A stretch of DNA of 64,000 nt from Armatimonadota bacterium. GTDB lineage: Bacteria; Armatimonadota; Hebobacteria; CAIYQO01. Position 1 is the stretch's first letter. Each line of letters starts with the position of its first letter. The notes under the pieces are model-generated. The model saw nothing but the letters and a program-made list of their open reading frames with translations. It did not search any database and had not been told where the DNA came from. Where the stretch lies: assembly GCA_020060775.1 (NCBI GenBank), contig JAGUZN010000220.1:984-64983 (forward strand), given 5' to 3'. Below, piece after piece: positions 3,315 to 58,458 of this stretch. The position numbers were made by a program, and so were the translations under genes.

Positions 3315-4388
3315 TTGAAAGGCGTGGAGCAGACCGTGGCAAAGTTGTTCATGAACGGCCTACAGCTAATTCTATCTTCCGATAGCTTCACTGCATACGA
3401 GGCAGAAATGCCCGAAGATGGTAGCTTGCGGAAACTGCGCGACCGATATGGCGACGGGTGGTTTTTCCATCGTCAAGGTAATAAGGTATATGGTTTTCCA
3501 CAAGTCGATCGTCCTACCATCCCATTTGGCACGTCCGTAGCATTAAAATGCCAAGAAAACCTTTCTATGCTAGCTGCGGTAGTCGGTGATATTATAGGAC
3601 GACGTCGATTCGGAGGCCAGGTATTATTCCGTCATCGTGGTGCGGAGTTCATCAGTAGTACAAAGGAACTCATCAGTGATGTCGCCAAACAAATGCCGGA
3701 TCTTCCCGACATAGTCAAGTTATTCAAAGCTTATCCACGTTTTACTTTAGAGGCAAAAGTCCTTGAGCTACGCGATGGCGATGGTGGGATCGGGTTATTC
3801 GTTACGTTGGGAAGCAGGTGGCGTATCGAAGCACCTCTCCACGATCTGTTGAGTAAAGGTATTGACCTTCAAGGTATGTACGTCGTTCGAAGGTATCCCG
3901 AGAAAGGCCAGCGGAGGCTTGTTGGTAGAATCTCCTGCATTGATAAAGGAACCGTCAAATTGCTAGAGTCATTCGACGGTACGGCTGAGATTGCGTGCGA
4001 CGACGTGTGGCTTGAAGGGAATAGAGAAAATTTTGCCTATTGCTTGAAGCACTTACTGAAGGCGCGTTACCTATCATTTGAGACTAAGCGTAGGGAAATA
4101 GAAGACCAGTTATTGTCGGGGCCTAAATTTCAGACAACGATACAAAGCATTGCACAGTCATTTACAAATAAGCCTCCCATGCAACTCACTCCTGATCTCC
4201 AGTGCATTGTTGGCGATATGATTTCCGTGAAAAATTTCGGCGGATACTGCACTGTGCGTGCCGCTTCTCCAGTGCAATGTTGCTATGATGCTGCACGGAC
4301 GCAACGGATGGAGTATCCCTGGAAAGGGATCGAAAATTTGGTCCGTTTAGTCGTGACACCTTTACAAGAAAATCACCGACGATACTAG
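3315..4388 (+). CDS. Hypothetical protein encoded immediately upstream of the short pAgo. It is a candidate pAgo partner (APAZ or N/PAZ-analogous half), but no motif is recognised.
   Basis: 357-aa ORF (TTG/alternative start at 3315, or ATG at 3351). Its stop at 4386-4388 lies 2 nt before the pAgo start. Its size plus the 404-aa MID-PIWI gives about 760 aa, roughly a long pAgo. Confidence 0.5.
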   Translation: MKGVEQTVAKLFMNGLQLILSSDSFTAYEAEMPEDGSLRKLRDRYGDGWFFHRQGNKVYGFPQVDRPTIPFGTSVALKCQENLSMLAAVVGDIIGRRRFGGQVLFRHRGAEFISSTKELISDVAKQMPDLPDIVKLFKAYPRFTLEAKVLELRDGDGGIGLFVTLGSRWRIEAPLHDLLSKGIDLQGMYVVRRYPEKGQRRLVGRISCIDKGTVKLLESFDGTAEIACDDVWLEGNRENFAYCLKHLLKARYLSFETKRREIEDQLLSGPKFQTTIQSIAQSFTNKPPMQLTPDLQCIVGDMISVKNFGGYCTVRAASPVQCCYDAARTQRMEYPWKGIENLVRLVVTPLQENHRRY

Positions 4389-38309: not shown

Positions 38310-39698
38310 ATAACGTAGGATATTTTTCGCACTTTCACCGAGGGGTTGCGGTGTAGCCCTTTCGCTGAGTAGAGTGTAAGCGCCAACTTACCATACTCAC
38401 GAAAGGGACTACACACGATGAACACTACGACAATCACTGGTGAGAGTCAAGCCCAAGCCGGGCTGGTGACGATCAATGAGGGGGAGCTGCGGGCGCATCT
38501 CGACCAGATCGTCACCGGCGCGGTGGAAGAGACGCTGAACCAATTGCTTGACGCGGAAGCGGAGGCGTTGTGCCAGGCGCGACGCTATGAGCGGACGGCG
38601 ACGCGGCAAGATACGCGGGCCGGGCATTACGCGCGTAAGCTCCAGACGCGGGCGGGCGAGGTGACGCTGAAGGTGCCGAAACTGCGGCAGCTGACCTTTG
38701 AGACGGCGATCATCGAGCGCTACCAGCGCCGGGAAGCCTCGGTGGAAGAGGCGCTGATCGAGATGTACCTCGCCGGGGTGAGCGTCCGGCGGGTGGAAGA
38801 CATCACCGAGGCGCTGTGGGGCACGAAGGTGAGCGCCTCGACGGTGAGTGACTTGAATCAGAAGCTCTACCTGCGCCTGGACGACTGGTTGGCCCGTCCG
38901 TTGACCGGGGACTTTGCCTACGTCTATCTGGACGGGCTCTGGCTGAAGAAGAGTTGGGGCGGCGAGGTGCAGACGGTCTCGGTGCTGGTGGCGGTGGGGG
39001 TGAGCGCCGACGGCTACCGGGAGATCCTGGGAGTCGCCGAAGGCATGAAGGAGGATACCGCAAGTTGGCGGGACTTCCTGCGGGGGATGAGGGCGCGGGG
39101 ATTGCAGGGTATCCGGCTGGTGGTCTCCGATTGCTGCCTGGGGCTGGTGGAGGCGCTGGGCGAGGTCTTCCCCGAGGCTGCTTGGCAGCGGTGCGTGGTG
39201 CACTTCTACCGCAATGTGCTGGGACAGGTGCCGCGGGGTAAGAGCCGGGAGGTGGCGACGATGCTGAAGGCGATTCATGCCCAGGAGGATCGCACGGCTG
39301 CCCTGCAGAAAGCAGAGGATGTCGCCGGGAAACTCCGGGGGCTGAAGCTGGAGAAGGCGGCCAAGGTGCTCCAAGCGGGCATCGCCGATACGCTGGCGTA
39401 CTATGCCTTCCCGAGTGAGCACTGGCGGAGTCTGCGTACGAATAATCCGTTGGAACGACTGAATCGAGAGATCCGTCGGCGGACCCGCGTGGTGGGCTGT
39501 TTCCCCGATGGCCGCTCGGCGGTGATGCTGGTGACCGCGCGCCTGCGGTATCTGGCCAGTAAAGACTGGGGGACCAAGCGGTATTTGAACATGCAACGCC
39601 TCTGGGACGCGGCGCCTTCCGGGGAGGAGGGCGCGTAGCGCGGAGGACAATCAGGCGCTCATACTCTACAAAAAGTGCGAAAAACTCTGGACACTACC
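38310..39698 (+). mobile_element. IS256-family insertion sequence, about 1.39 kb, apparently intact.
   Basis: Single Mutator-type transposase ORF. Imperfect terminal inverted repeats sharing TTTTTCGCACTTT (left 38323..38335; right reverse complement at 39672..39684). Left end 'GATAACGTAGG' resembles the IS256 IRL start. Confidence 0.75.
38418..39638 (+). CDS. IS256-family (Mutator-type) transposase.
   Basis: 'YVYLDGLWLK..AVGVSADGYREILG' and the characteristic IS256 N-terminus 'HLDQIVTGAVEETLNQLLDAEAEALCQARRYERT'. Confidence 0.88.
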   Translation: MNTTTITGESQAQAGLVTINEGELRAHLDQIVTGAVEETLNQLLDAEAEALCQARRYERTATRQDTRAGHYARKLQTRAGEVTLKVPKLRQLTFETAIIERYQRREASVEEALIEMYLAGVSVRRVEDITEALWGTKVSASTVSDLNQKLYLRLDDWLARPLTGDFAYVYLDGLWLKKSWGGEVQTVSVLVAVGVSADGYREILGVAEGMKEDTASWRDFLRGMRARGLQGIRLVVSDCCLGLVEALGEVFPEAAWQRCVVHFYRNVLGQVPRGKSREVATMLKAIHAQEDRTAALQKAEDVAGKLRGLKLEKAAKVLQAGIADTLAYYAFPSEHWRSLRTNNPLERLNREIRRRTRVVGCFPDGRSAVMLVTARLRYLASKDWGTKRYLNMQRLWDAAPSGEEGA

Positions 39699-39707
39699 TT
39701 TTTGAGG
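39699..39707. repeat. Right copy of the target-site duplication (TTTTTGAGG).
   Basis: See the left copy at 38301..38309. Confidence 0.55.
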
Positions 39708-53278: not shown

Positions 53279-53595
53279 ACCGGATGATGGCACACGCCAG
53301 GCCCCGCGCTTTCCGCATCTCGGTGGGGCGGGGCCTGGCGGTTGCAGTCATCCGCCCCCAACTCCCCCTGCCTGCGGAATTTGCACAGCTTAACCGCCAT
53401 CCCCGCCGTTCTCAAGAAAAGTGTCGTAAAGCTGCACATATTCCCTTGACAAGAGGTGCAACACTGGAGGCGATCACTGTCCACGCTGTCGTTTCGCCGG
53501 TCATGTACCTGGTCGCGCGGGGATCGGTTACACACAGCGTGCGCTCGGTGAACATACGAGAACACTGTCACAGGGAACAAAAGGAGGATCTCCCT

Positions 53596-54630
53596 ATGCT
53601 TAGGATGATGGCCGTTCTCGCGGTGGGGGGCGCGATGCTCATCAGCAGCCTCGCGTACGCTGCCCCGAGGGAGCTTTCGAGTGGTGACCTGGACACCGTC
53701 GCGGCTGGTGCGTACATCGACCAGTTCATTCCGACGATGCCGAATTCCGTGAATACCAATGCCGAATTCGCCTATGGCGACATTGCCGAAGCCGTGGGCG
53801 GCGCGGCGATCGTGGGTGATGCCAACGAAGTGACGTTGGCCGGCGCGACATGCGATGGCATTGCCGTGATTGGTAATGACAACATTACCGCTGACAACTC
53901 CAATGTGGTGGACGACGGCGCCGAGGTGGCGATCGCCGGCAATCACAACTCTGCCCTGCGCATCGATCAGGAAGATGCCGTGGCTGCGCTGGTGATTGGC
54001 CCCAATGCCACGTTCGATATCACCTTCAACGATGTTGAAGGCCTGATCGACGACGGTTCCGCCGTCGTCATCGGCGACAATAACCTGGTGGACGTGTACA
54101 TGGATGACACGGACGTCTATGGCACCATTGGCGGTAATTTCAGCCTTGTCGATACGAATACGGCAACTGCGACGATTGCGCAAACCAATACCGCCAACGC
54201 GAGTGGCGAAAGCAGTGCCGATATCACGCAGGCCAACATCGCCAACATCACCATCAACCAGAATGGCGATAACGACGATGCCTATGGCGTCATTGCGAAG
54301 GAAGCCAAGGTCGATCACGCCTTCAACGTGGATGAGCTCTACGTTGACGTGTCAGCGGATATCTGTGGTTCCTTCAACAAGGAAGACACCGCGATTAGCA
54401 TCTGCGGGCAGAATGGCGTATCCACCAATGTGAACGGCAATGCGGCCGGCCTGCAGGAAATCGGCTCATTGCTCAACACCACGAACGCCGCTGCCTCCGG
54501 CACCGGCGCGTTGGCCGATAACGGCTCGAGCATCTCGGCTGATGCCTTTGCGGACACCGCCGCCACCCAGATCGTGTTGAACGGCGTGTGCGTGGGGATC
54601 GGCATCTTCGTCGATGGTGGTGCTCGATAG
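53596..54630 (+). CDS. Secreted Asn/Asp/Gly/Ala-rich imperfect-repeat protein, paralog 1. Candidate amyloid-type fibre subunit.
   Basis: Signal peptide MLRMMAVLAVGGAMLISSLAYA, then 'ELSSGDLDTVAAG'. Repeats of the type 'IAVIGNDNITADNSNVVDDGAEVAIAGNHNSAL' and 'ANITINQNGDNDDAYGVI'. RBS AAGGAGGATCTCCC is identical to that of paralog 2. Confidence 0.7.
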   Translation: MLRMMAVLAVGGAMLISSLAYAAPRELSSGDLDTVAAGAYIDQFIPTMPNSVNTNAEFAYGDIAEAVGGAAIVGDANEVTLAGATCDGIAVIGNDNITADNSNVVDDGAEVAIAGNHNSALRIDQEDAVAALVIGPNATFDITFNDVEGLIDDGSAVVIGDNNLVDVYMDDTDVYGTIGGNFSLVDTNTATATIAQTNTANASGESSADITQANIANITINQNGDNDDAYGVIAKEAKVDHAFNVDELYVDVSADICGSFNKEDTAISICGQNGVSTNVNGNAAGLQEIGSLLNTTNAAASGTGALADNGSSISADAFADTAATQIVLNGVCVGIGIFVDGGAR

Positions 54631-54969
54631 ACCATCGCGGCTGATAACAGGTGAAACCAGGTGTGCGCACCCCGGGCATGCAATGGCTCGGGGTGCGTTG
54701 CTTAGTGTTGATACCCTGCGGAGCCCCGGAAGAGGGAGTGGATGAGAAAGTTGACAGATGCTCGGTTTTGCACAGGTTCTCCACCAGACGGCTTGTTCGT
54801 CAAGAAAGTGACGCCACTCCTGCACATATCTCCTTGACAATCGGTGTGATACTGAGGGCGATCATCGTACCGCCAACCCGCATGGCTGGTCGGGGTACTT
54901 CCCGCGCGACGACCCAGACAGGGACGCCGGAACGGTGAGACTATCACTGGGAAGTAAGGAGGATCTCCC

Positions 54970-55857
54970 ATGAAGACGAATGTGGGCGCGTTGCTGGTGG
55001 CAGGGCTTTTCCTCTGCAGCAGCATCGCAATCGCCGCACCGAAAGCACTTTCGAGTGCCGAGCTGGATGGCGTGGCGGCCGGGTTTGGTAACTGGGCCCC
55101 CCCGTCGACGAACAATACCCCGCAAAACATCCCCTTTATGGTGACCGAGGATGTCGCGGTGGCTGAACTCGGTGGACTGGCGATTGACGGTAACGAGAAC
55201 GAATACAAAGAGGCCTTTGCATCTGAAGATGCTATTGCCGTGATCGGCAATGACAACGAGACGATCGATGGCAGCAATTTCGTTGATGGTGATGGTGACT
55301 GCGAGATTGCCATCGCCGGCGAGATGAACGAAGCCATCTCGATCGAGCAGGATGCCGACTTCGCGCTGGTGGCCGGTGAGAACCTGTCGCTGAACGCGAC
55401 CTATAACGAAATCGGCAGTGTGGACGAGTCGGCGGTCGTGCTCGGCACCAACAATCACGTGACGGTGACGCAGGACGACACCTATATCGATGGTTTCATC
55501 GGCAACGGTGGCTACGGTGTGATTGCCAAGGAAGCCTGTGTCGTAGATTCCTTCAACACCAGCATCGTCGAGACCTATGTCACGGTGACCATTGAAGATT
55601 CGTTCAACTGCATTTCCAACACCCTGGACATCTCCGGCCAGAACAACATGACCGCGCTGGTGAATGCCAATACGTTGGGCGATCAGTACATCGGCGTGGC
55701 CGTGAACGTGACTAACGCGGCTGCGACCTCGAGTGCGCCTGGTCCGTCGGCGCCGGTGGTGGCGACCGCGCAAACGGCGGTTACCCAGGTTGTGGTCAAC
55801 GGCTCCTGCTTCTTCGGCATCGGAGTCATTGATCTCTTCCCTGGTAATGGCGGTTAA
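54970..55857 (+). CDS. Secreted Asn/Asp/Gly-rich imperfect-repeat protein, paralog 2.
   Basis: Signal peptide MKTNVGALLVAGLFLCSSIAIA, then 'ALSSAELDGVAAG'. Repeat content similar to paralog 1. Confidence 0.7.
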   Translation: MKTNVGALLVAGLFLCSSIAIAAPKALSSAELDGVAAGFGNWAPPSTNNTPQNIPFMVTEDVAVAELGGLAIDGNENEYKEAFASEDAIAVIGNDNETIDGSNFVDGDGDCEIAIAGEMNEAISIEQDADFALVAGENLSLNATYNEIGSVDESAVVLGTNNHVTVTQDDTYIDGFIGNGGYGVIAKEACVVDSFNTSIVETYVTVTIEDSFNCISNTLDISGQNNMTALVNANTLGDQYIGVAVNVTNAAATSSAPGPSAPVVATAQTAVTQVVVNGSCFFGIGVIDLFPGNGG

Positions 55858-55953
55858 GTCGCCGCAGTCGGTTCGAACGCAAGGCGGAAGGCTTTGTCGT
55901 TCGTCTGCACGGGGGCCGGGCTCACCCGGCCCCCACCGAGATAGGAGGGAGTG

Positions 55954-56484
55954 ATGACCACGAAGATTCTGCGATGGATGCTGCTCGGTGTCCTGAGCAT
56001 CCTGTGCATCAGCATCGTGGCTGCGGCGACTCCCCGCCCGTTGGCCGACCACCAGTTGGATGACGTGTACGCTGCGGGGTTCGATGTACAGGTCGATTTT
56101 AACATGGATGTTGCGGCGGAACGGCCGGAATCGGTCATTTTGCTATCCGGCGATCAACAAGCGTTGGAGTCGCTCGCCGGTCAGGGGATCACCCTGACGC
56201 GCACCATGGGCGGCGGGCGCAACACCGCCGGGCTCGACCCGAACGGCACCTATGTGCCGAATTTGCAAAACCTGACCAATAACACGATCAATCTCTCTGG
56301 AAACGCGTTGCAGAACGCGACGAGCCTGCTCAACATTTTTGCGTTGGAAGGCGATGTCGCGGTCGGTCTGAACCTGAACGTGGTGGTAAACCCGGTGAAC
56401 AGTCCGGTGAATGTGTCACAAATGAACCTAAACTGGGGCACACTCAATCTTTCGAATGCGTTGCCGACATTCGCTTCCCCGTGA
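55954..56484 (+). CDS. Secreted repeat protein, paralog 3 (shorter).
   Basis: Signal peptide, then 'LADHQLDDVYAAG'. N/L/T-rich repeats 'LNLNVVVNPVNSPVNVSQMNLNWGTLNLSN'. Confidence 0.6.
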   Translation: MTTKILRWMLLGVLSILCISIVAAATPRPLADHQLDDVYAAGFDVQVDFNMDVAAERPESVILLSGDQQALESLAGQGITLTRTMGGGRNTAGLDPNGTYVPNLQNLTNNTINLSGNALQNATSLLNIFALEGDVAVGLNLNVVVNPVNSPVNVSQMNLNWGTLNLSNALPTFASP

Positions 56485-56524: not shown

Positions 56525-57247
56525 ATGCGAAAGTTGAACCATCTGGTCACGATGACCGTGTTGGTATGGTGGGTTCTACTGCGAACCTCACCCGCGCTCG
56601 CGGGTGAGGTTCGCGTCCCCACCTCATCGTTTGGCGCCGGCATTTCGGTGAGCGTTGAGGTGAAGAGCATCAAAGAGATGCGCGAGGACGAGATGGTGCT
56701 GCAGCGGCTGGACTACAGTTGCGGGTCAGCCGCCCTCTCCACGATGTTCACGTCCTACCTGCACCAGGCCTACACGGAGGAGGAGATCATCGACTTTCTC
56801 CTGCAGAGCGGCAATATGCAAAAGTTTCTGGCGCGCAAAGGGTTTTCCATGCTTGACCTGAAACGCTTTGCGGAAGCGCATGGGGTCAAGGCGATCGGCT
56901 ATGAACTGGACCTGGAGAGCCTGGCAGAACTGAACCAGCCGGTGCTCATCCCGCTCTTCCGCAAAGCACAGGATATGCGTCACTTTGTGATCTTCCGTGG
57001 CATGCATGATGGCCGTGTCTTCCTGGCAGACCCGGCGGTGGGGCGTACGGTTATTCCCGTTGCGCAGTTTGAAGAGGAATGGACGCCGCGCGTCGGCATG
57101 GTCTTCCAGCGCCCGGGCTGGCCGACATGCGACGTGCATGCGCTGGCGGTTGAGGATCGCGATCGCATTTATCTGGATACCGAGCAAGTACGCGCCTTGA
57201 TTACCAATACCGTGGCGGACGTCTTCCACCAGGCGAATGAGTTTTAA
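56525..57247 (+). CDS. Secreted papain-like C39-family cysteine peptidase (stand-alone).
   Basis: Signal peptide. Catalytic Cys context 'QRLDYSCGSAALSTMF'. His context 'MRHFVIFRGMHDGRVFLADPAVG'. Confidence 0.75.
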   Translation: MRKLNHLVTMTVLVWWVLLRTSPALAGEVRVPTSSFGAGISVSVEVKSIKEMREDEMVLQRLDYSCGSAALSTMFTSYLHQAYTEEEIIDFLLQSGNMQKFLARKGFSMLDLKRFAEAHGVKAIGYELDLESLAELNQPVLIPLFRKAQDMRHFVIFRGMHDGRVFLADPAVGRTVIPVAQFEEEWTPRVGMVFQRPGWPTCDVHALAVEDRDRIYLDTEQVRALITNTVADVFHQANEF

Positions 57248-57363: not shown

Positions 57364-58458
57364 GTGCGTATCACACCGGTTTTTGTTGCAGTGCTGGCAG
57401 CGCTGTGGTGCTGCCTGATGTCTGCCGCTACGGCACAGGTCACGCAATTACCCGGCATTCCTGCGGAAACCAGCCCGTTGCCCGTGGAAGACACGGCACC
57501 TGCCCCCCTACCCACCGGCGAGGGAGAGGACGAGGTGGCGCCACCGCCGGCCGAAGAGGCGGCGTTACCCTCGCAGGTACGGCGGGCGGACCTGATGATC
57601 AAGCGCGGCGAAGCTGAGTTGGAATGGCGCGTGTCCTACTCGCATTTCTCCTCCAACACCCTGTTTATCGATGGCGTGGCCATGTTGCCGATCATGGTTA
57701 TCGGCAATGTGGCGGTCGAACGCGTGCGGCGCGACCTGATCATCACGTCGGCGGCGGTGCGCTACGGGTTGCAGGACAATCTGGAGGGCGAGGTTCGCCT
57801 CCCCTTCCGCTACCAGTTCGAACGCCGGGCTGTTCCCGATGCCTCGCCCCCGCAGGAAGATACGCTCAACGGCTTCGGCCTGGGTGATATCGAAGGGGCA
57901 CTGTATTACCAACTTCCCAAGACACCGCAGAGCACCGTGCGGTGGATCGTCAGCGCCGGGGTGAAAACCGCTACCGGCAAGGATATCTTCGAAATCGATA
58001 CCAACGAGGAAGTCCCACTGGGCTCGGGGTTCTGGAGTTCGAAGTTCGGCATCACCGGCATGAAGATCGCCGATCCCGCCGCGATCTACTGGAACGCGGG
58101 CTTCACCTATAACTGGCTGCGGGAGAATATCCGCATCGTCTCGACAGATCAGACGACCGGCGACACCGTAGTCAGTTACGTCAATATCAAACCGGGCAAC
58201 ACTATCGATTTCGGCGGCGGCGTGGCCTATGCGCTGAATCCCAAACTCTCCCTCAACATGGGCGTGTCCGCCAGCTTTAGCGGTTCGACCACCTCAAACG
58301 ACCGGCGCGTGCCCAACACCGCGGTGACCAGCGCCACCCTCCGGTTAGGGGCGGTGTGGGTAGGGGAAGTCCTGCCGGTTGATCTCTCGCTCGGCATCGG
58401 GCTCACGGAAGACTCTCCGGACTTCACGCTCGAATTCCGTCAGAACTATCGATTTTGA
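57364..58458 (+). CDS. Secreted protein with a Pro/Ala/Glu-rich linker and a C-terminal beta-barrel-like domain ending in an aromatic residue (outer-membrane transporter-like; FapF-like by architecture).
   Basis: Signal peptide MRITPVFVAVLAALWCCLMSAATAQ. Alternating hydrophobic beta-strand pattern. C-terminal '..EFRQNYRF'. Confidence 0.55.
   Translation: MRITPVFVAVLAALWCCLMSAATAQVTQLPGIPAETSPLPVEDTAPAPLPTGEGEDEVAPPPAEEAALPSQVRRADLMIKRGEAELEWRVSYSHFSSNTLFIDGVAMLPIMVIGNVAVERVRRDLIITSAAVRYGLQDNLEGEVRLPFRYQFERRAVPDASPPQEDTLNGFGLGDIEGALYYQLPKTPQSTVRWIVSAGVKTATGKDIFEIDTNEEVPLGSGFWSSKFGITGMKIADPAAIYWNAGFTYNWLRENIRIVSTDQTTGDTVVSYVNIKPGNTIDFGGGVAYALNPKLSLNMGVSASFSGSTTSNDRRVPNTAVTSATLRLGAVWVGEVLPVDLSLGIGLTEDSPDFTLEFRQNYRF

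Follow-up and report, generated by a model that had tools for sequence, protein, structure and literature searches.

A probable double-glycine-type leader behind the Sec signal peptide in a Fap/Fil-like gene cluster of an Armatimonadota bacterium

Can a C39 peptidase that is itself secreted act on proteins that have already left the cytoplasm via Sec? This question is raised by a cluster of five genes, termed here A through E, in a stretch of 64,000 nucleotides (nt) from an Armatimonadota bacterium (GenBank assembly GCA_020060775.1, contig JAGUZN010000220.1), referred to below as the window. Three of the genes encode repeat proteins (A, B, and C), the fourth a Sec-secreted C39 cysteine peptidase (D), and the fifth a FapF/FilC-like outer-membrane beta-barrel (E). 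An initial annotation had pointed to a motif, LSxx(E/D)LDxVAAG, shared by the three repeat proteins behind their signal peptides, and had proposed that signal peptidase cuts these proteins first and the C39 peptidase second, after AAG, a route considered unusual for double-glycine leaders. We find it reasonably probable, if far from certain, that A through E represent a Fap/Fil-type system for secretion of extracellular fibres, whose subunits carry a Sec signal peptide followed by a double-glycine-type propeptide that is cut by the C39 peptidase. The cluster consists of these five co-oriented genes only, flanked by a sugar-phosphate-isomerase-like gene and by smc, with the following features (aa, amino acids):

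53596..54630, forward strand: subunit A, 344 aa; signal peptide at nt 53596-53661 (MLRMMAVLAVGGAMLISSLAYA), leader at nt 53662-53709 (APRELSSGDLDTVAAG), leader-region peptide APRELSSGDLDTVAAGAYIDQF
54970..55857, forward strand: subunit B, 295 aa; signal peptide at nt 54970-55035 (MKTNVGALLVAGLFLCSSIAIA), leader at nt 55036-55083 (APKALSSAELDGVAAG), leader-region peptide APKALSSAELDGVAAGFGNWAPPS
55954..56484, forward strand: small subunit C, 176 aa; signal peptide at nt 55954-56025 (MTTKILRWMLLGVLSILCISIVAA), leader at nt 56026-56079 (ATPRPLADHQLDDVYAAG), leader-region peptide ATPRPLADHQLDDVYAAGFDVQVD
56525..57247, forward strand: peptidase D, 240 aa, Sec-secreted C39 cysteine peptidase; signal peptide at about nt 56525-56602
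56702-56704, 56720-56722, 56981-56983, and 57029-57031, forward strand: catalytic residues Gln60, Cys66, His153, and Asp169 of D, respectively
57364..58458, forward strand: barrel E, 364 aa, FapF/FilC-like outer-membrane beta-barrel; signal peptide, then a Pro/Glu/Ala-rich N-terminal linker

The tandem N-termini of A, B, and C

Each of the three N-termini presents a basic n-region, a hydrophobic core, and an AxA-type site (AYA↓AP in A, AIA↓AP in B, and VAA↓AT in C; arrows mark presumed cuts), the signal peptides being called by a heuristic that combines these three features with conservation in relatives. These signal-peptide-like segments, of 22-24 residues and ending in AxA, are followed by leaders of 16-18 residues, which read AYAAPRELSSGDLDTVAAG↓AY in A (LDTVAAG at nt 53689-53709), AIAAPKALSSAELDGVAAG↓FG in B (LDGVAAG at nt 55063-55083), and VAAATPRPLADHQLDDVYAAG↓FD in C (LDDVYAAG at nt 56056-56079). 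The three strings on which the initial annotation was built are thus in place in the translations, each behind an apparent Sec signal peptide that is also conserved in relatives. Counted back from the final Gly, the spacing in A and B is L-12, E/D-8, L-7, V-4, A-2, and G-1, and C follows the same pattern with one extra residue, position -8 being E, D, or Q across the three. The agreement with the double-glycine leader consensus, as originally claimed, therefore extends to the spacing but not to position -2, which is Ala and not the canonical Gly.

As to the remainder of these proteins, the mature part of A is acidic, rich in Ala, Asp, Asn, and Gly, with (A/V)(V/I)IGxDN-like repeats, and A and B are paralogues (40% identical), ending GIGIFVDGGAR and GIGVIDLFPGNGG, respectively. 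None of A, B, or C matches a Pfam or NCBIfam family, including any Fap family at an E-value <=1 and the DUF6160/FilA families, the models searched including one for FapE that recognizes true FapE at 349.8 bits; the designation of A, B, and C as fibre subunits is suggested by context and composition. A single non-self homologue of B (P0002, 42% identity) is found among 5.8 billion proteins, with the leader kept. The family of C is larger, with 29 cluster representatives among 1.84 billion proteins, and all 19 of the 19 sequences read possess the signal peptide and the leader, LDxVYAAGF being invariant in seven homologues. The most conserved part of the mature protein in this family is a C-terminal block, ISGNALQN..SLLN..A..GDVAVG.NLNVVVNP.NS. 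A weak C-terminal likeness between B (55606-55710) and C (56269-56382) can also be recognized, N..NT(L/I).(I/L)SG.N..T.L.N...LGD..(I/V)G(V/L).(V/L)NV, and this shared block may represent a common assembly or channel-recognition element.

The closest relatives of the cluster are found in metagenome-assembled genomes of other Armatimonadota, whose peptidases are 53-57% identical to D, the nearest among 132 homologues at an E-value <=1e-10. Synteny is kept in these relatives: peptidase and barrel are accompanied by two to four large subunits and a single small one of about 175 aa, and smc is located downstream in two of the three. Every subunit encoded in them possesses A(F/Y/I)A↓AP, followed by xxL(S/T)xx(Q/E/D)L(D/A)xV(x)AG. 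Beyond the leaders, the large subunits of two of the loci (genes at 1837, 3742, and 5649 of L001, and at 2754 and 4717 of L083) end in ..ITVTF, ..LTITF, ..ISVSF, or ..VNIQF; such alternating C-termini with a terminal Phe, unlike those of A and B, are reminiscent of the beta-signal of outer-membrane proteins.

Peptidase, barrel, and other carriers of the leader

The only domain recognized in D is PF03412 (Pfam, E-value 3.4e-20), preceded by a hydrophobic signal-like N-terminus, and no ATP-binding cassette (ABC) domain was found in D, nor any ABC gene in the five-gene cluster, in agreement with the original description of this gene as encoding a Sec-secreted C39 peptidase free of an ABC fusion. 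Q60, C66, H153, and D169 are invariant across an alignment of 20 homologues, and all four align with their counterparts in the double-glycine protease domain LahT150, which is the best match of D by sequence among solved structures (6MPZ, E-value 8e-6); ComA also matches. Among the NCBIfam models, D best matches the 'putative pilus system C39 peptidase FilB' (1.5e-35), followed by the 'fibril amyloid maturation endopeptidase FapD' (1.2e-28), with scores that denote homology but lie far below membership (122.9 bits against a cut-off of 475 for FilB, and 99.9 against 330 for FapD). Similarly, E is a homologue of the amyloid transporter FapF (1.4e-28; 99.8 bits, the cut-off being 700) and of FilC (7.1e-18; 65.1 bits against 630), in both cases far below membership, and it also matches Phenol_MetA_deg (Pfam, 8.7e-5). 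When phmmer is run against true Pseudomonas fap operons, D retrieves FapD and E retrieves FapF, each at about 1e-24. The genes for D and E are separated by 116 nt on the same strand, both products possess signal peptides, and E is presumed to be the export channel. With a FilB/FapD-like peptidase next to a FapF/FilC-like barrel, the cluster is thus distantly related to the Fap 'hybrid secretion system' (fapABCDEF; Rouse et al., 2017), in which the periplasmic C39 peptidase FapD is essential (PMC5557850).

The leader is by no means limited to the Armatimonadota. A genome scan with the peptidase alignment produced 80 loci, in which the signal-plus-motif module was then sought by regular expression and by hidden Markov model (HMM), and in many of these loci, in several phyla, it is found on mature proteins unrelated to A, B, or C. 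One example is presented by the Burkholderiales and other Pseudomonadota, where the carriers are of the DUF6160 (Pfam) or FilA (NCBIfam) type, for example SAS↓AMTPIQDAELSTVSGQ↓DGVSIA, with a signal peptide followed by (L/I)xDxELSxV(S/T)G(Q/G/R). In the Oxalobacteraceae loci L027, L043, L051, L070, and L075, up to five DUF6160/FilA-like genes, all with the leader, are arranged in tandem on the strand opposite the peptidase. Another example is the loci of Aquificota, Omnitrophota, and deltaproteobacteria, which encode small proteins of the C type (VSDSELDSVYAQ↓GF), along with, in one Omnitrophota locus, a Ser/Ala/Asn-rich protein of 915 aa that carries the module. A third example is the Fap-like loci of beta- and gammaproteobacteria, in which the gene that follows the peptidase often encodes a true double glycine (SNQELAALRGG↓FE, SEDQLDDMRGG↓FD), and which also encode, just 5' of the peptidase, a small unannotated secreted family (112-165 aa) ending in QNSGNNVLIQNATILNL. 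The most conserved N-terminal feature of this latter family is L-x-x-x-R-G-(G/R/K), 25-60 residues past the signal peptide, and no Pfam or NCBIfam match was found for it. Its C-terminus reads ..AF.GASG..TV(I/V)QNSGNNV(L/I)IQNATI.NL, about 350-500 nt separate the end of its gene from the start of the downstream peptidase gene, and it is encoded in loci L020, L030, L037, L045, L047, L050, L060, L061, L067, and others. These QNSGNNVLIQN-type proteins were also considered as homologues of C, and a profile-profile comparison (probability of 8.5%) indicated no homology.

In some other lineages, peptidase-barrel pairs are present with no leader-bearing gene detected within 8 kilobases, as in Marinobacter (L014, L022, L023, L042, L046, L055, L057, L062, L063, and L072) and in Oleiphilaceae and relatives (L024, L026, L034, L035, L041, and L074), the pair being located, in L026, L034, L035, L041, and L074, directly downstream of hupB- and ppiD-like genes. 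The substrates of these pairs may be encoded elsewhere, or they may possess a divergent leader.

Taking the peptidase loci together, a homologue of the FapF-like barrel is present in 79 of 83, on the same strand in 61. When the leader HMM was applied to the N-terminal regions of 950 signal-peptide-like open reading frames (ORFs) from 84 loci, 103 matches of at least 8 bits were obtained against 0.1 expected from shuffles of the same regions, about 60 of these being training sequences and the remainder new, and 50 of the 84 loci had one match or more. These models are short, and the regular expression used for selection itself fixed positions -8, -7, -4, -2, and -1; in a non-redundant alignment across families the positions left free are conserved as well, with a hydrophobic residue at -12, Asp at -10, and polar residues at -11 and -6. 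Two positions after the hydrophobic residue at -4 a small residue (Gly or Ala) is invariant across families, the residue after it varies (G, Q, R, A, K, or E), and beyond +3 the information content is at background.

One could argue that the motif merely reflects recent duplication or a composition rich in Ala, Gly, and Asp, as A and B are 40% identical and the proteins are compositionally biased. The relationship of C to B speaks against this, as their best local match is precisely the signal peptide plus leader (E-value 3e-4), with a weaker C-terminal match besides (BLASTP E-value 0.017). A leave-clade-out model speaks against it as well. This HMM was trained on 56 leader segments from non-Armatimonadota loci only and applied to the six-frame translation of the whole window (1227 segments, 98.7 thousand residues), and its top three matches are C (12.7 bits, E-value 0.006), B (12.5 bits, 0.007), and A (7.0 bits, 0.46), each located exactly behind the signal peptide, with the fourth-best match at 5.5 bits. 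With a model from other phyla ranking C, B, and A first, and with 103 matches against 0.1 in shuffles, chance or simple paralogy is effectively excluded, and we assign it only a marginal residual probability.

A different proposition is that the segment belongs to the mature protein, as an N-terminal helix or strand in contacts between fibre subunits, its likeness to double-glycine leaders being convergent. The residues past the motif are indeed conserved within each family (GF(D/N)V in the C type, DG(I/V)S in DUF6160, and (V/I)(F/L)D(Y/W)(V/F)(F/L)G in relatives of A and B), and AlphaFold places a helix at the segment, with very low confidence. However, unrelated subunit families share the signal peptide and the motif only, the likeness ending at the small-residue pair, the motif is strictly tied to a C39 gene nearby and retains the spacing of known leaders, and, in the case of FapE considered below, the N-terminal peptide is absent in vivo. 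We thus regard a purely structural role of the segment as quite improbable.

FapE and the question of cleavage

The substrate of FapD has been stated as unknown (PMC5557850; PMC6173800), the Fap proteins have been described as being without canonical C39 sequences (Rouse et al.; PMC5557850), and a review of December 2025 has FapD merely 'thought to' process FapE and FapF. We used as a query the contiguous FapE peptides of Pseudomonas sp. UK4, residues 133-209 (Supplementary Data 6, PMC5557850), with which 32 metagenomic fapE loci were recovered, the closest being 97% identical over the fragment and an NCBIfam FapE equivalog (349.8 bits against a cut-off of 250); a tblastn search of plasmids with the same peptides gave no match. 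All 30 of the 30 N-terminally complete sequences (L087-L116, with fapE at about 3600-4350) conform to MNTxRWLT..AASxPAYA↓SSAFKPIE(M/L)xD(A/S)E(L/M)A(E/D/Q)LRGR↓(F/Y)VMPGR. FapE is thus composed of a signal peptide, then SSAFKPIEMNDAELAELRGR, then FVMPGR (PIEMNDAELAELRGR↓FVMPGR behind the Sec signal), the leader positions being M/L-12, E-8, L/M-7, L-4, G-2, and R-1, and it is the only ORF matching the leader model within the fap operons. The published peptide positions fit a numbering from the second Met, placing the signal peptide at residues 1-20 and the leader at 21-40. The published mass spectrometry does not include the tryptic peptide SSAFKPIEMNDAELAELR (18 residues, 21-38), although other FapE peptides reach up to 24 spectral counts (PMC5557850); trypsin would next release GR, FVMPGR, and a 51-mer. 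FapE was reported with 'absence of the first ~70 residues' (PMC5557850), and with the leader peptide missing and the next tryptic products awkward, this absence is compatible with a cut at about residue 40/41. As a reinterpretation of published data, this suggests that FapD cuts FapE near residue 40/41.

A processing route for A, B, and C can be outlined from these comparisons. The subunits would cross the inner membrane via Sec, and signal peptidase I would cut at AxA, exposing a propeptide of 16-18 residues that probably forms an amphipathic helix, one side of which is lined by L-12, L-7, and V-4. Periplasmic D would bind this propeptide and cut at the pair of small residues (AAG↓ for A and B, either AA↓G or AAG↓ for C), and, judging from ABC-fused C39 exporters, it would probably also pass the unfolded subunit on to barrel E to be exported and assembled. 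Under the canonical geometry, the cuts would fall after AAG in A and B, after RGR in FapE, after G(Q/G/R) in DUF6160 proteins, and after VYAA in C. The cut after AAG anticipated by the initial annotation is thereby retained for A and B, while in C the register of the family makes a scissile bond one residue earlier (VYAA↓GF) likely, in preference to AAG↓FD. As a variant of this route, signal peptidase may make no cut, with the C39 cut alone detaching the protein from the membrane; conservation of the AxA sites speaks against this.

The motif could also be a targeting or docking signal that remains uncleaved, read by a chaperone-like peptidase or by the periplasmic part of the barrel, with the peptidase acting on some other substrate such as the linker of FapF-type barrels. 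Cleavage of the FapF linker was considered possible by Rouse et al. (PMC5557850), non-catalytic C39-like domains act as substrate chaperones in type 1 secretion (PMC5557850), and residue -1 is non-canonical in many of the relatives. Set against this are the four catalytic residues, invariant in 20 homologues, and the essential catalytic cysteine of FapD (Cys38), which is required for secretion (PMC5557850). In addition, the leader HMM detected no leader-like motif in E in the six-frame search of the window, mass spectrometry did not detect the leader peptide of FapE, and a small residue conserved at -2 would be required for cleavage but not for a mere docking helix. An uncleaved docking signal is thus, in our view, rather unlikely. 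Two-step processing is favoured by the portability of the module, by the leaders in all subunits of the Armatimonadota relatives, by FapE, and by the complete catalytic set of D. The comparative evidence thus lends partial support to the original proposal, in which cleavage and its bond are predictions.

Several points weigh against this reading. For A, B, and C, cleavage and the bond at which it would occur, the link to export, and the identity as fibre proteins are predictions from sequence comparison and context. With Ala at -2 here, and frequently Gln, Arg, or Lys at -1 in relatives, the leaders depart from the strict GG, GA, or GS of characterised C39 substrates. About one third of the peptidase-barrel loci have no leader-bearing gene detected within 8 kilobases by the heuristics used. 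The AlphaFold2 models of the subunits are too poor to be of use, with a pLDDT (predicted local distance difference test) of 44 for C (alignment of seven sequences) and of 32 for B (three sequences). The gap in FapE mass spectrometry is partly explicable by unfavourable tryptic peptides (GR, FVMPGR, and the 51-mer), and it locates no site. Finally, FapB and FapC of Pseudomonas are secreted without such a leader, and therefore the leader is no general requirement for barrel passage.

With these points in mind, we tentatively put forward a more general rule for fibre secretion in Gram-negative bacteria, one to which we give somewhat less than an even chance. In Fap, Fil, and their relatives in Armatimonadota, Aquificota, Omnitrophota, and Pseudomonadota, the substrates would carry two successive signals, the first (Sec) directing them across the inner membrane and the second, a double-glycine-type leader, across the outer one, and the free C39 peptidase would be the receptor, or gatekeeper, of a FapF-type barrel, an ATP-independent 'outer-membrane PCAT' (PCAT, peptidase-containing ABC transporter). 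As a corollary, FapE would be a substrate of FapD, cut at about Arg40↓Phe41 (UK4 numbering). For FapD, which is essential for amyloid secretion in Pseudomonas, both the substrate and the recognition sequence have been open questions since 2013-2017, and the module presents a concrete, conserved candidate site in FapE, in FilA-type pilins, and in many unannotated proteins. If the rule is true, the biology of double-glycine leaders extends from cytoplasmic ABC exporters to the periplasm and the outer membrane. The module also offers a signature by which the cargo could be identified in hundreds of peptidase-barrel loci that are as yet uncharacterised, and it points to a portable tag with which unfolded proteins might be secreted across the outer membrane.

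Surroundings of the cluster and comparison with known systems

The starts of the cluster genes are backed by Shine-Dalgarno sequences, AAGGAGGATCTCCC standing directly 5' of ATG in both A and B, and for C an alternative GTG start at 55951 is possible. Long intergenic regions precede A (317 nt) and B (339 nt), and these contain common conserved blocks (53420-53595 and 54790-54969), TTTGCACAG and CTGCACATAT..CCTTGACAA, in addition to the identical AAGGAGGATCTCCC. These blocks could represent a shared promoter or a regulatory element of the 5' untranslated region; scans of 52.8-58.7 kilobases against Rfam and for sigma-70 promoters and terminators returned nothing above chance. Read in frame, the stretch before the start gives 'KEDLP', and as this also precedes the starts of subunit genes in the relatives L001, L083, and L085, the ribosome-binding region is conserved across genera. 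Elsewhere in the window, positions 33600-39700 are of low guanine-plus-cytosine content (0.40-0.45 versus about 0.6 elsewhere), encoding a sodium:solute symporter (35385-36842) and two ORFs without a Pfam family, followed by a Mutator-family (IS256-like) transposase (38418-39638, E-value 1e-114); this stretch is probably a horizontally acquired island.

As to the novelty of these observations, the type of system, Fap/Fil secretion with a periplasmic C39 peptidase, is already known. In the literature on Fap, Fil, and related substrates we came across no account of a double-glycine-type leader placed behind a Sec signal, although papers beyond our search or family notes in databases could hold one. 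What appears to be new is the tandem-leader rule, the presence of the leader on all of the subunits here, and the occurrence outside Pseudomonadota with unrelated subunits. Two-step processing, earlier called unusual, is so in comparison with ABC-fused systems; a Fap/Fil type with the periplasmic C39 peptidase FapD, however, has been described (PMC5557850). With D and E adjoining and both possessing signal peptides, the cluster falls within the broader class defined by a free periplasmic C39 peptidase, a FapF-like barrel, and Sec-dependent substrates. The additional class feature that we propose, a neighbouring substrate with a signal peptide and a double-glycine-like leader, is found in A, B, and C, in 50 of the 84 loci, and in FapE.

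The likeness to Fap consists in a Sec-secreted periplasmic C39 peptidase that adjoins an outer-membrane barrel, in Sec-dependent fibre subunits, and in FapE, which bears the same signal peptide and leader module as A, B, and C. On the other hand, A, B, and C do not detectably resemble FapB, FapC, or FapE, no FapA is encoded in the cluster, the leader is present on every subunit here versus FapE only in the fap operons, and the host belongs to the Armatimonadota versus the Pseudomonadota. With the Fil system of Acinetobacter (filABCDEF) and DUF6160 proteins, the likeness is in D best matching FilB, in E matching FilC, and in the leaders of the DUF6160/FilA type fitting the same model, while counterparts of FilD, FilE, and FilF are missing from the cluster, and position -2 is Ala here versus Gly in DUF6160/FilA.

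The third comparison is with the PCATs (ComA, LahT, and PCAT1), with which D shares a homologous peptidase fold and the catalytic Gln, Cys, His, and Asp, and whose leaders are spaced like those described here, being hydrophobic at -12, -7, and -4, acidic at -8, and ending in small residues. The differences are in the terminal pair (A-G or G-x here versus G-G/A/S) and, above all, in the topology. The PCAT leader is the extreme N-terminus and the peptidase is a cytoplasmic domain of an ABC exporter, whereas here the leader follows a Sec signal peptide and D is a free periplasmic protein, and export would cross the outer membrane via the barrel, with fibre-like proteins of 130-530 residues as the substrates instead of small peptides.

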